A stretch of 32,000 bases of DNA from the NCBI GenBank assembly GCA_964522265.1, contig CAZFVS010000001.1, positions 50,605 through 82,604 on the forward strand, given 5' to 3'. This DNA comes from an uncultured Gammaproteobacteria bacterium. GTDB taxonomy: Bacteria; Patescibacteriota; Microgenomatia; Daviesbacterales; UBA10151. Both the position numbers and the translations under genes were made by a program. The notes beneath the pieces were generated by a model, which saw nothing but the letters and a program-made list of their open reading frames with translations, did not search any database and was not told the origin of the DNA. Of this stretch, positions 5,614 to 8,466 are shown in pieces. Within the stretch, counting starts at the first letter, position 1. Every line of letters begins with the position of its first letter.

Positions 5614-6425
5614 TAAAGCCCCAGTTCTTTTTCTGCTTTTATTTTCTGATCAGGGTTTGGAACACCGTGGTGCCAATGGGGGTTGTTTTCCATGAATGAT
5701 ACTCCTTTCCCCTTGATTGTGTTTGCGATGATTGCCAGCGGTTTGATTCTTTTTTTTTGCTTTGCTTTTTTGATTGCGTTTATGATCTGCTTAAAATTAT
5801 GCCCATCTATGTTAACTGTTTCCCAGCCAAAAGCTGCCCATCTGCCTTCCATTGGTGAGTTGCCTGCAAAATCTTTCGTATTTGTTGTTGCGGCAATGGA
5901 ATTATTATCTACGAAGACCGTTAAATTATTCAATTTTTGTGAGGATGCAAAGTTGGCAGCTTCCCAGACAGACCCTTCAGCGCATTCGCCGTCTCCTAAA
6001 ATAACAAAAGTGATAAAATTTTTTCTGTCCAGTTTGGCACCCAAAGCAAGTCCTGCACCAATACCCAACCCGTGGCCCAGAGATCCTGAGGATATTTCGA
6101 TCCCCGGTATAAAATGGTCAGGGTGTCCGCCCAAGATTGAGCCATTTTGCCCGTATGTGTTTAATACCTCTTTTTTGAAAAAACCAGCATCTGCAAGTAC
6201 TGCATAAAGTGCCAGACAGGCATGACCTTTGCTGAGTATGATCCGGTCGCGGTTAGGGTCATTTTGGTTTTTAGCAGATATTTTTAGAAGTTTTGAAAAA
6301 TAAAGAGATACTAAAATCTCGGTAACTGAAAAAGCTCCTCCAAGATGTCCTTTCCCTGCCTGGGATTGCATCCTGAAAGCTTGTTGTCTGACCCATTCCG
6401 CTTTTTGTACCAGCTTCTCATTCAT
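5613..6425 (-). CDS. Transketolase-family protein, N-terminal ThDP-binding subunit
   Basis: The ORF-track start at 6428 is TTG; ATG at 6425 gives a 1-nt TGATG junction with the E1 beta stop. GHLGGAFSVTEILVSLYF, LSKGHACLALYAVL, GSLGHGLGIGAGLALG and the ThDP motif GDGECAEGSVWEAANFASSQKLNNLTVFVDNN are present. Confidence 0.85.
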   Translation of the reverse strand: MNEKLVQKAEWVRQQAFRMQSQAGKGHLGGAFSVTEILVSLYFSKLLKISAKNQNDPNRDRIILSKGHACLALYAVLADAGFFKKEVLNTYGQNGSILGGHPDHFIPGIEISSGSLGHGLGIGAGLALGAKLDRKNFITFVILGDGECAEGSVWEAANFASSQKLNNLTVFVDNNSIAATTNTKDFAGNSPMEGRWAAFGWETVNIDGHNFKQIINAIKKAKQKKRIKPLAIIANTIKGKGVSFMENNPHWHHGVPNPDQKIKAEKELGL

Positions 6426-7498
6426 CAAAAAGGTCCTTTAAATTTATTTTCATAACTGTAGAACTGCTCGTTGCTTAAATCTGTTGGTTGGAAAAGCTTT
6501 TCTTCAATCGCCCTGATGATTGTTACTGCATTAGGATAAAACTCATTTTCTAAGGGTCTGGTGCAGGGGCAGGGTGTGGGTGCAAAACCGATTCTTTTAA
6601 CCGCTGATTTTAGGATTTTATAGCATTGATCATAAACCCGGGTAGCCACTTCAGCGCTAAAACCGCAATTTATCCAGTCGTAGTCCGCAATAATAAGATG
6701 CCCTGTTTTTTTAACTGAGTTGATGATTATCCCCTCATCCAGAGGGGAAATTGTCCTGGGGTCAATTACCTCTACCGATACCCCTCTTCTTTCAAGTATC
6801 TCTGCAGCCTTGAGTGCCTCCACATTCATATAGGATGTGGCAACAATTGTTACATCTTTCCCCTCATGTAAAATTTTGCCCTGGCCCATGGGTAGGGGAT
6901 CTGGGTTTTCATCAACCTCTCCCATGACATCATAGAGCATCCTGTGTTCCAAAAAAACCACAGGATTATTATCTCTGATTGCAGCTTTCAACAGCCCTTT
7001 GGTATCTGATGGAGTAGTGGGCATAATAACTTTCAGGCCCGGAATATGGGCAAAAAAAGACTGAAGACTTTTACTATGTTGGTAGGACTGGCCCCAGCCT
7101 TTGCCAATGACAGCTCGGATAACAAGAGGGATTTTATATCTGCCGTTTGAACCGTAACCATAACTTGAGACCATATTTACAAGCTGGTTCATGGCCAAGA
7201 GTAAGAAATCCAACCTAATATGTACATTAACCGGCCGCATCCCGTTTATTGCTGCCCCGAGTCCGAACCCTAAAAGAGCCTCTTCCGATAAGGGAGTTGA
7301 AAAAATCCTTTCAGGCCCAAATTCCTCCAGGAGTCCCGAAGTTGAGCCGAATATTCTTTTATGGTCAGCGGCATCAATTCCGTATACGAAGACATTTGGA
7401 TCCAACCTCATCTCTTCAGCAAGTGCTTCAGCAATAGCCTGGCGGTAACTGATCAAACGGGTTTTAGAGTTTAAGTTGTTTGTTTTGGTACTTTTCAT
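6425..7498 (-). CDS. 2-oxoacid (pyruvate/acetoin/BCKA-type) dehydrogenase E1 component, beta subunit homolog
   Basis: ISYRQAIAEALAEEMRLDPNVFVYG, ERIFSTPLSEEALLGFGLGAAINGMRPV, HSKSLQSFFAHIPGLKVIMPTTPSDTKGLLKAAIRDNNPVVFLEH. ATGA overlap with the E1 alpha stop. Confidence 0.85.
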   Translation of the reverse strand: MKSTKTNNLNSKTRLISYRQAIAEALAEEMRLDPNVFVYGIDAADHKRIFGSTSGLLEEFGPERIFSTPLSEEALLGFGLGAAINGMRPVNVHIRLDFLLLAMNQLVNMVSSYGYGSNGRYKIPLVIRAVIGKGWGQSYQHSKSLQSFFAHIPGLKVIMPTTPSDTKGLLKAAIRDNNPVVFLEHRMLYDVMGEVDENPDPLPMGQGKILHEGKDVTIVATSYMNVEALKAAEILERRGVSVEVIDPRTISPLDEGIIINSVKKTGHLIIADYDWINCGFSAEVATRVYDQCYKILKSAVKRIGFAPTPCPCTRPLENEFYPNAVTIIRAIEEKLFQPTDLSNEQFYSYENKFKGPF

Positions 7499-8466
7499 TC
7501 TTGGTAAACATTATTGTATAGATCTTCTTTTTGGGGAAACGGGGTTTTTTGGGCAGATTCCAGGCTTTTGTATATTTTTTCCGAAATCTGCGCTTCTAAT
7601 TCTTGGATCTGTTTTTCTGTAAACTTAAGACCTAACAGTTTTTTCCTTTGAATTAAGTATGGGTCGATTCTTTTCCATTTTTCAAACTCATCCTTGCTTC
7701 TGTAACCTGCTTGAAAATCCTCATGTACTCCGACATGTTCAAGATAGCGGTAGTATTTTAACTGTATAAATGCCGGTGTTTTATCTTTTTCAATTTTAGC
7801 AATGGCATTTAGTGTCAGGTTATAAATTACTTCCGGGTCAGTTGTATTTTCTTCAAAAAAATTGATTTTATATTGGGATATAATTTTTGTTAAAGAATCA
7901 TAGCCGCGCCTTAAATGAGTAGCTGTGTGGACTGCCAAACCATTATCCTCGCAAATGAACAGGACAGGAAGCTTCATCAGGCAGGCTATGTTGAGGCTTT
8001 CCCAAAACACGCCTTCATCTGTTGCCCCATCCCCGAAAAAAACAGCAACAACTTTGCCGTTTTTTTTCTGTTTATTGACAAACGCAGCCCCTAGAGCAAG
8101 CGGGATTGTGCTTGCCACAATTGCAGATACACCCAGGAGGTTATGTTCTGGCGAAATCAGGTGCATTGATCCGCCCTTACCTTTGACAACACCAGTAGTC
8201 TTACCGTACATTTCCCCAAAAAACCCTTCCACATCACCTGTTTTTGCAAGATACAACCCATGGCTTCTGTAAGTTCCGAAAGCTTGGTGGTTTGTACCAA
8301 GGGCAAGGCAGCAACCTGCAGAAATTGCCTCAGAACCCATTGACATGTGCATTGGTGTTTTCATCTCATCAGATTCATAATTTTCAATAATAAGCTCTTC
8401 ACTCCGTCGTATCAGGTAAACAGTTTTATATAAATTAAGATTTAAATTCTTCCTATCAGATGGCAT
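7495..8466 (-). CDS. 2-oxoacid dehydrogenase E1 component, alpha subunit homolog (ThDP-binding)
   Basis: The ORF-track start at 8517 is TTG, followed by ATG at 8514; either would overlap the Gmd-like gene by about 60 nt. ATG at 8466 (MPSDRKNL) overlaps by 11 nt and has a GGAGGG about 13 nt upstream. TYRSHG, GKGGSMH and the ThDP motif [31 protein letters not shown] are present. Confidence 0.8.
   Translation of the reverse strand: [323 protein letters not shown]

Follow-up and report, generated by a model that had tools for sequence, protein, structure and literature searches.

An E1 alpha/beta pair without E2 and E3 in a nucleotide-sugar operon of an uncultured bacterium: a candidate sugar-branching carboligase

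Thiamine diphosphate (ThDP) enzymes of the pyruvate dehydrogenase (PDH) E1 type, each made of an alpha and a beta subunit, have been assigned the attachment of C2 branches to sugars in several antibiotic pathways: AviB1/B2 (avilamycin), Pau11/12 (paulomycin), AlmDI/DII (aldgamycin), and KbDH-alpha/beta (kibdelomycin) (PMC12247030, PMC4753412). The role of KbDH-alpha/beta was shown in vitro, and approximately 120 gene clusters with such an E1 enzyme have been reported (PMC12247030, PMC4753412). YerE and YerE-like enzymes, which belong to the acetohydroxyacid synthase (AHAS)-like decarboxylase superfamily and serve the branched lipopolysaccharide (LPS) sugars yersiniose, erwiniose, and caryophyllose (PMC12247030, PMC9306805), fall in a different ThDP superfamily from the E1 pairs (PMC12247030). 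The field's rule has been that YerE provides the branches of Gram-negative LPS and E1 pairs those of Gram-positive antibiotic producers (PMC4753412). Split transketolases have been proposed for hydroxyacetyl branching of a keto sugar acceptor in miharamycin and amipurimycin; the 13 known candidates for sugar branching are all from Streptomyces, and none has been characterised (PMC12247030). Here we describe a PDH-type E1 alpha/beta pair encoded in a stretch of 32,000 nucleotides (the window; positions 50,605 to 82,604 of contig CAZFVS010000001.1) from an uncultured bacterium placed in the Patescibacteriota.

The pair is probably an E2-independent, alpha2beta2-type ThDP carboligase, which would transfer a C2 unit from pyruvate to a GDP-4-keto-6-deoxy sugar. 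This role matches that of AviB1/B2, Pau11/12, and KbDH, so sugar branching by a stand-alone E1 pair is an established idea and not a new one.

The E1 pair, its operon, and its relatives

The window is a polysaccharide locus of approximately 33% GC in which nearly every gene lies on the minus strand. The E1 genes are members of an 11-gene minus-strand operon that opens with a 4,6-dehydratase gene of the GDP-heptose/mannose type and continues with E1 alpha, E1 beta, the N and C subunits of a transketolase, an Fcl-like short-chain dehydrogenase/reductase (SDR), a 141-amino-acid protein, an aldo-keto reductase (AKR), a CalS11-like methyltransferase, a second Fcl-like SDR, and an RmlC-like epimerase. 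The first five genes and the features of the E1 pair are as follows.

8456-9445, minus strand: GDP-sugar 4,6-dehydratase (GMD / GDP-heptose dehydratase type); Pfam GDP_Man_Dehyd, 7e-77
7495-8466, minus strand: E1 alpha subunit (ThDP / PP domain), 323 amino acids; Pfam E1_dh, 6e-47
7942-8034, minus strand: ThDP-Mg motif GDG...N of E1 alpha
6425-7498, minus strand: E1 beta subunit (PYR and C-terminal domains), 357 amino acids; Pfam Transket_pyr, 2e-34, and Transketolase_C, 6e-33
6428-6508, minus strand: family-specific extension at the C terminus of E1 beta (residues 331-357) that ends in FYSYENKFKGPF
5613-6428, minus strand: split transketolase N-terminal (PP) subunit; Pfam Transketolase_N, 9e-43; NF004559, 274 bits
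4639-5613, minus strand: split transketolase C-terminal (PYR) subunit with altered phosphate-binding site; top PDB match 6YAJ, 137 bits

An earlier sequence-only reading of this DNA had placed E1 alpha and beta genes here, and intact open reading frames were found at both positions. The ThDP motif that it quoted for alpha was present and identical, and the two blocks that it named in beta, STPLSEE and HSxS, were both recovered, the latter as HSKS. Adjacent PDH-type E1 alpha and beta genes with an intact ThDP-Mg motif, as in the sugar-branching E1 pairs, are therefore encoded at this locus. The GDG and the Mg-ligand Asn of alpha were unchanged throughout 25 homologues, and the catalytic histidines were kept, with betaHis128 and alphaHis271 of the G. 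stearothermophilus enzyme aligning to YQHSKS and YRYLEHVG, respectively. The closest solved structures were distant: human branched-chain keto acid dehydrogenase (BCKDH) E1 alpha for the alpha subunit (126 bits) and G. stearothermophilus E1 beta for residues 19-330 of the beta subunit (229 bits). A database search returned 5581 homologues of E1 alpha; the best 119 outside the window were 57 to 71% identical to it and mostly metagenomic.

The ATG of E1 alpha, at 8466, lies 11 nt within the 3' end of the dehydratase gene and is preceded by GGAGG at 8483-8479; alpha runs into beta through a shared ATGA, which holds the stop of one and the start of the other, and the start of the transketolase N subunit gene likewise overlaps the stop of beta. 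Together, these overlaps and the GGAGG indicate a translationally coupled operon rather than a chance match. The GC content over 6001-9000, which holds the dehydratase and E1 genes, was 40 to 42.5%, versus approximately 29 to 38% (mostly 30 to 35%) elsewhere in the window, a difference compatible with either horizontal acquisition or strong amino acid constraint on a highly conserved module.

The pair had also been called an orphan, and this description held: no E2, E3, or lipoyl protein was found by tblastn in the window or in 80 related loci. E. coli AceF and Lpd, when compared to the window, gave noise alone, even at an E value of 10 or less, and the same two queries together with the E2, lipoyl protein, and Lpd of Phaeobacter had no match at an E value of 1e-3 or less in the window and 90 loci (1.49 Mb). 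As a positive control, the E. coli AceF and Lpd queries picked up E2 and E3 beside the canonical E1 of a Phaeobacter plasmid, where E1 alpha, E1 beta, lipoyl protein, E2, and LpdA are encoded side by side. The alpha product was absent from the records searched and beta occurred there on a 1.6-kb contig only, and the region just beyond the window edges was therefore judged from syntenic relatives; neither E2 nor E3 was found within 10 kb in any of the 80, a radius that leaves room for them elsewhere in the genomes. The scores of the pair against models of metabolic enzymes were all below cut-off, at 252 bits for E1 alpha against TIGR03182, the PDH E1 equivalog (cut-off, 394), 303 bits for E1 beta against NF006667 (cut-off, 321), and 288 bits for NF008854 (cut-off, 454).

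All 70 complete orthologues of E1 beta end in GPF, on an extension of approximately 25 residues, with F-Y-S-[YH]-E-x-[KR]-F-[KR]-G-P-F as the final 12 in 68 of the 70. This extension falls outside the region aligned to the E1 beta of G. stearothermophilus and Thermus and is absent from the Phaeobacter E1 beta encoded beside E2 and E3. In 2005, Frank et al. are said to have identified the beta C terminus as the docking place for the E2 binding domain in canonical E1; the two-fold axis of E1 is where that domain docks (PMC2663715). Among the best 150 representatives of E1 beta-like proteins clustered at 50% identity, 50 had a GP[FY] terminus. GPF also ends single-chain alpha-beta E1 fusions of 659 to 708 amino acids (P0124, P0125, P0135, P0136, P0149, P0223, and P0227, as well as L091, 8001-10016), which could serve structure prediction of the alpha/beta interface with its tail; the gene context of P0125 was uninformative. 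Proteins of this kind are presently named pyruvate/acetoin dehydrogenase subunits or "transketolase C-terminal domain-containing protein", and the GPF tail is a sequence signature by which genome annotation could tell E1 carboligases that act without E2 from metabolic E1s.

The tail extends to more distant pairs. One that is 39% identical lies, without E2 or E3, among dehydratase, DegT, and heptose genes (L092/L093). On plasmid p6 of Azospirillum lipoferum 4B (L085, 11064-14402), a pair that is 49% identical ends in FKGPF and is flanked by genes for an NAD(P)-dependent oxidoreductase and, directly following, a DegT aminotransferase, with glycosyltransferases approximately 3 kb upstream. The combination of pair and DegT parallels kibdelomycin, where the acetyl branch undergoes transamination, and this strain provides a cultured carrier that is tractable for identifying the sugar. 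Two Streptomyces plasmid pairs without E2, with E1 beta 44 to 45% identical, end in GPY. They were considered as stand-ins for AviB-type enzymes and rejected, as they lie outside sugar clusters, one in a polyketide synthase/nonribosomal peptide synthetase context and the other without detectable sugar genes nearby. The E1 pair of an S. magneticus sugar cluster has no tail, and the GPF signature is therefore not universal.

The sequence-only reading had described both flanking genes as sugar modifying. This was correct for the upstream gene, which encodes the sugar 4,6-dehydratase, but the downstream one encodes the N subunit of a split transketolase and is no classical sugar-modifying gene. 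Both this adjacent split transketolase (4639-6428) and the link to GDP-heptose had been overlooked, and they change the likely product of the pathway. Catalytic residues of transketolase are conserved in the N subunit (His26, His66, His261, GDG, and Asn185 in E. coli numbering), and the C subunit keeps Arg358, Glu411, Asp469, and His473 (E. coli TktA numbering). Of the residues that we take to be the sugar-phosphate ligands of TktA, namely, Arg358, Ser385, His461, and Arg520, His461 was replaced by Gly in 25 of 26 sequences and Arg520 by Lys in 23 of 26, and Ser385 was not conserved. The split enzyme of the window consequently does not combine the catalytic set with all four ligands, as a canonical transketolase does. 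In 6YAJ, a bona fide split transketolase, the His and Arg at positions 461 and 520 are kept. The altered phosphate site fits an acceptor or donor outside the canonical range, without proving either.

The distribution of the pair was followed by scanning one genome per species; of the 341 relatives that this confirmed, the 80 best loci were retained and mapped. These 80 belong to more than 15 phyla, and their alpha subunits are 50 to 63% identical to that of the window. The bacterial carriers are Patescibacteria (Levy-, Davies-, Saccharibacteria, and others), Omnitrophota, Planctomycetota, Chloroflexota (Dehalococcoidia), Nitrospirota, Acidobacteriota, Desulfobacterota, and Heliobacterium mobile DSM 6151; the archaeal carriers are Thermoplasmata. 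Across phyla the E1 pair is fixed in a nucleotide-sugar operon, which bears out the sugar-gene setting first noticed in the window. The recurring core usually includes the 4,6-dehydratase, always E1 alpha-E1 beta, and in many cases two SDRs along with an RmlC-like epimerase, with E1 beta directly following E1 alpha in all 69 loci that have room for it. Optional inserts are the split transketolase, a YerE-like enzyme, the AKR, and the CalS11-like methyltransferase. Among the 55 loci with at least 9 kb of downstream sequence, the split transketolase follows the E1 pair in 23 and an RmlC-like gene is present in 34, an AHAS/YerE-like gene in 7 (6 alongside transketolase), the CalS11-like methyltransferase in 17 (15 alongside transketolase), and the AKR in 16 (13 of the 23 transketolase-bearing loci versus 3 of the 32 without transketolase).

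Eight loci contain both the E1 pair and a YerE-like gene, which immediately follows E1 beta in six of them; L016 carries a second YerE-like copy upstream, and in L072 the gene comes after those for the AKR and methyltransferase. Three ThDP enzymes in a row (E1 alpha/beta, AHAS/YerE-like, and split transketolase) are encoded in L004, L006, L016, L038, L060, and L063, and L002, with its AHAS-like gene at 12070-13770, was likewise cited as having three thiamine enzymes in a row. No AHAS-like (YerE-type) gene was found in the window. Genomes of Levybacteria, Microgenomates, and H. mobile carry the exact cassette of the window (L005, L009, L013, L026, and L023).

The dehydratase provides the link to heptose. 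Its closest solved structure was 7US5, the GDP-D-glycero-D-manno-heptose 4,6-dehydratase of C. jejuni (277 bits), followed by the Rmd reductase 2PK3. Of 74 loci, 39 have a same-strand homologue upstream of E1 at a distance of 150 nt or less, and 53 have one at 1.5 kb or less. GDP-heptose genes were present in roughly half of the related loci (HddA-like kinase in 38/80, GmhA in 13/80, and GmhB in 10/80), some of them loci with a dehydratase that shares 68% identity or more with that of the window, and in some relatives GmhA and GmhB, or an HddA-like kinase, sit between the dehydratase and E1 alpha. A NUDIX hydrolase gene occupies the same place in L032, L051, L083 (approximately 9400-9990), and 11 other loci; the dehydratase of this subgroup is merely about 50% identical to that of the window, and the inserted NUDIX protein may be a GDP-sugar hydrolase.

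Proposed pathway and alternatives

By context and precedent, the pair is best explained as a C2-branching carboligase whose acceptor would be a keto-sugar nucleotide. Genes for generating a sugar ketone and for reducing one are both at hand, with the 4,6-dehydratase upstream and the SDRs, AKR, RmlC-like epimerase, and CalS11-like methyltransferase downstream. From the gene identities, synteny, motifs, and tail that were observed, we infer a donor, an acceptor, a branch position, an order of steps, and a product sugar as follows. The dehydratase would convert GDP-D-glycero-D-manno-heptose or GDP-mannose to its 4-keto-6-deoxy form, and the E1 pair would decarboxylate pyruvate to hydroxyethylidene-ThDP. 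The C2 unit would then pass to the sugar ketone instead of to a lipoyl arm, giving a tertiary alcohol with an acetyl branch. The new ketone would be reduced by the SDRs and/or the AKR, the ring configuration would be set by the RmlC-like epimerase, and the sugar would be O-methylated by the CalS11-like enzyme. In the window and approximately 40% of its relatives, a hydroxyacetyl group would follow as a second C2 unit, added by the split transketolase. The finished sugar would enter a glycan exported by the Wzm/Wzt ABC transporter (11924-14001).

Several observations weigh against this pathway. An upstream same-strand dehydratase was missing from 14 of the 74 loci at the threshold used. A search of the window found no nucleotidyltransferase and no heptose-activation genes, so that either GDP-heptose or GDP-mannose may be the substrate. 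The residues for reductive acetylation of lipoate are kept in the E1 pair, whose sequence is thus in itself compatible with lipoyl chemistry. The core, with its dehydratase, cupin epimerase, and SDR, is already the enzyme set of a plain 6-deoxy-heptose or 6-deoxy-hexose pathway; if C4 were reduced by that pathway, the ketone for E1 would be gone, which leaves the extra SDR and the order of steps unexplained.

Other explanations of the pair must be weighed against a C2-branching carboligase. If it were an ordinary metabolic E1 for pyruvate, acetoin, or a branched-chain keto acid, with E2 and E3 elsewhere in the genome, its sugar location would be incidental. Clear PDH/BCKDH E1 homology, the retained catalytic histidines, and the naming of some homologues as pyruvate/acetoin dehydrogenase subunits in the sources speak for this, but the same sugar synteny in 80 species-level genomes of many phyla, the lack of E2 and E3 within 10 kb at any locus when the Phaeobacter complex has them adjacent, the scores of both subunits under the equivalog cut-offs, and a conserved beta tail absent from every canonical beta examined make it very improbable. 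A role that never touches the nucleotide sugar, in which the pair would make a small acyloin or an activated C2 unit for use as a donor or as a non-carbohydrate substituent, we regard as quite unlikely. YerE-like enzymes of longer-branched sugars do take pre-formed, functionalised keto acids (PMC9306805), an E1-type acetoin:dichlorophenolindophenol (DCPIP) oxidoreductase forms acyloins from small ketones (PMC12247030), and the YerE-like gene immediately follows E1 beta in 6 of the 8 loci that have one. Nevertheless, the invariant partner of the pair is a sugar dehydratase and not a YerE-like enzyme or transketolase, the majority of loci encode neither a further ThDP enzyme nor an obvious transferase for such a product, and aldolases, the known donor-building genes, were not seen in the window.

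The remaining alternatives keep the nucleotide sugar as the substrate and differ from acetyl addition at C4 in the chemistry. The pair might act at another carbon, by a 1,4-addition of the Stetter type to the dehydratase's 4-keto-5,6-ene intermediate, which would extend the chain, or by repeated carboligation, with each new branch ketone serving as acceptor for the next ThDP enzyme (YerE-like and then transketolase). Up to three ThDP enzymes in a row are found in six loci, and three units cannot fit on one sugar ketone; the co-occurrence of AKR and methyltransferase with the transketolase, and a transketolase lacking two sugar-phosphate ligands, point the same way. On the other side, there is no precedent for Stetter chemistry on sugars by E1-type enzymes, the E1 pairs characterised or proposed so far all yield simple C2 branches at C3 or C4 (PMC12247030), and most loci hold the E1 pair without further ThDP enzymes, so that a departure of this kind is unlikely. 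Carried furthest, the idea becomes a ThDP "assembly line" in which E1 alpha/beta, sometimes a YerE-like enzyme, and then the altered transketolase would each add C2 to the preceding ketone, and the tail would mark a large E2-independent E1 superfamily, in which it would either obstruct E2 docking or take over from the lipoyl domain in closing the active site. We consider this whole reading possible but doubtful. Were it true, GDP-6-deoxy-4-keto-heptose or -hexose would be built up to a sugar new to glycochemistry, with several branches or a higher carbon number, and Patescibacteria and further uncultured lineages would display it on their surface.

Other genes of the operon and the window

The remaining genes of the operon and the exporter are listed here.

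3666-4649, minus strand: GDP-fucose-synthase-like SDR (w05), accessory cassette; Pfam Epimerase, 2e-46; NF047922, 175 bits, below cut-off
3244-3669, minus strand: conserved 141-amino-acid protein; no Pfam or NCBIfam match
2141-3238, minus strand: aldo-keto reductase; Pfam Aldo_ket_red, 1e-67
1381-2184, minus strand: CalS11-like nucleotide-sugar O-methyltransferase; PDB 4GF5/3TOS, 214 bits
405-1394, minus strand: core SDR (w01 type, GDP-fucose-synthase-like); Pfam Epimerase, 7e-46
1-408, minus strand: RmlC-like 3,5-epimerase, truncated at the window edge after its N-terminal 137 residues; tblastn, 76% identity to the RmlC-like protein of L002
11924-14001, minus strand: Wzm/Wzt ABC exporter

The structures 4GF5 and 3TOS are those of CalS11, a TDP-rhamnose 3'-O-methyltransferase, and the CalS11-like protein of the window is 65% identical to a 250-amino-acid protein of L002. 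The AKR is a candidate reductase of the branch ketone, by analogy to Pau7, an AKR that reduces the C-4' acetyl branch in paulomycin (PMC4753412). Orthologues of the 141-amino-acid protein, 40 to 65% identical, adjoin a w05-type SDR, with the two paired in eight of nine loci. Those of the w01-type SDR are 63 to 76% identical, occur in 26 of the 55 loci, and are usually followed by an RmlC-like gene. The RmlC-like protein of L002 matches TIGR01221 (rmlC) at 120 bits.

Two genes for FkbM-family methyltransferases (9490-10425 and 10781-11920, minus strand) adjoin Wzt, to which there is a weak Wzt_C match, and Wzm, in a layout reminiscent of methyl-capped, ABC-exported O-polysaccharides; an FkbM gene is also present in L002, between Wzm and Wzt. 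Inside the glycan cluster, a 451-amino-acid protein (21486-22841, minus strand) and a 600-amino-acid polytopic membrane protein (22894-24696, minus strand) have no Pfam match; their candidate functions are those of a polymerase, a ligase, or a glycosyltransferase belonging to an unknown family. In two DegT-family proteins, encoded at 15969-17204 (plus strand; SFYGSHIIT) and 20184-21398 (minus strand; SFMAAHIITTGEGG), His replaces the Lys that binds pyridoxal phosphate, which is kept in a third (28076-29170). The top match of the second protein is the Yersinia E1 3-dehydrase 3BCX (253 bits), but the Fe-S cysteines of 3BCX are lacking. Given the Lys-to-His replacement and the lack of these cysteines, both His-bearing proteins are likely ColD-type 3-dehydratases making 3,6-dideoxy sugars, the acceptor type of YerE.

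Comparison with known systems

The window pair shares its fold, ThDP motif, and catalytic histidines with the metabolic E1 of the pyruvate, acetoin, and branched-chain 2-oxoacid complexes; it differs from them in having no E2, E3, or lipoyl partner at the locus, scores below the equivalog cut-offs, an extended beta subunit, and an obligatory sugar-gene context.

The GDP-6-deoxy-heptose pathways of Campylobacter jejuni and Yersinia consist of a 4,6-dehydratase, a cupin C3/C5 epimerase, and a C4 reductase. They are matched here by the core dehydratase, the RmlC-like cupin, and the Fcl-like SDR, together with the HddA, GmhA, and GmhB of the relatives. Set against these pathways, what distinguishes the window locus is the E1 pair directly after the dehydratase; to our knowledge, there is no ThDP enzyme in either of them. 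A search of the literature, including that on Coxiella LPS, found nothing on the virenose/dihydrohydroxystreptose (DHHS) and bradyrhizose clusters as homes of E1 or transketolase genes, and a general literature search for O-antigen or heptose pathways that include E1 or transketolase likewise found nothing relevant.

YerE and the E1 pairs are both built from related PP and PYR domains, and the earlier suggestion that the pair is a non-homologous analogue of YerE is therefore too strong, even though the two ThDP enzymes belong to different superfamilies. The role proposed for the pair and that of YerE have in common the ThDP-dependent addition of an acyl-anion equivalent to a 4-keto-deoxysugar nucleotide destined for a surface glycan, followed by ketoreduction (PMC12247030, PMC9306805). 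YerE is, however, one chain with three domains (TPP_enzyme_N/M/C), whereas the window encodes an E1 alpha/beta pair (E1_dh; Transket_pyr/Transketolase_C). A pathway of the caryophyllose/erwiniose type was rejected, since such pathways use aldolase-made keto acids and a YerE-like enzyme, with no E1 or transketolase (PMC9306805).

The transketolase of the window resembles the miharamycin and amipurimycin candidates in being encoded by split genes within a sugar pathway. Unlike those, it is part of a glycan operon, follows an E1 pair, and carries the His461Gly and Arg520Lys replacements.

A further comparison is with the actinomycete E1 pairs (alphaKADH2 class). Like the window, they have separate PDH-E1-type alpha and beta genes, no E2 or E3, deoxysugar genes, and an adjacent ketone-generating dehydratase, and a branch-ketone reductase nearby, an AKR as in the case of Pau7, is common to both. 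The likeness to AviB, Pau, Alm, and KbDH was drawn by gene context and assigned role, not by sequence. The differences lie in the setting. Whereas the actinomycete pairs belong to antibiotic clusters, the window is a Wzm/Wzt surface-polysaccharide locus of an uncultured bacterium with 33% GC; its sugar is probably GDP linked and in relatives often heptose derived, versus the sugars of actinomycete antibiotics; and its pair is accompanied by a split transketolase (and, among the relatives, by a YerE-like enzyme), in a clade that reaches over more than 15 phyla, including archaea. An E1-pair family in surface-glycan loci breaks the division between YerE for Gram-negative bacteria and E1 pairs for Gram-positive ones. 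As many phyla, candidate-phyla-radiation bacteria and archaea among them, have such pairs in their surface-glycan loci, uncharted cell envelopes may commonly contain sugars that are C-branched or chain-extended (heptose-derived), and the clade is a candidate source of ketone-accepting ThDP biocatalysts for tertiary alcohols. Taken together with the described systems, what looks new in this family is its surface-glycan/GDP-heptose setting, its breadth over uncultured phyla, the stacking of two or three ThDP enzymes, and the GPF tail.

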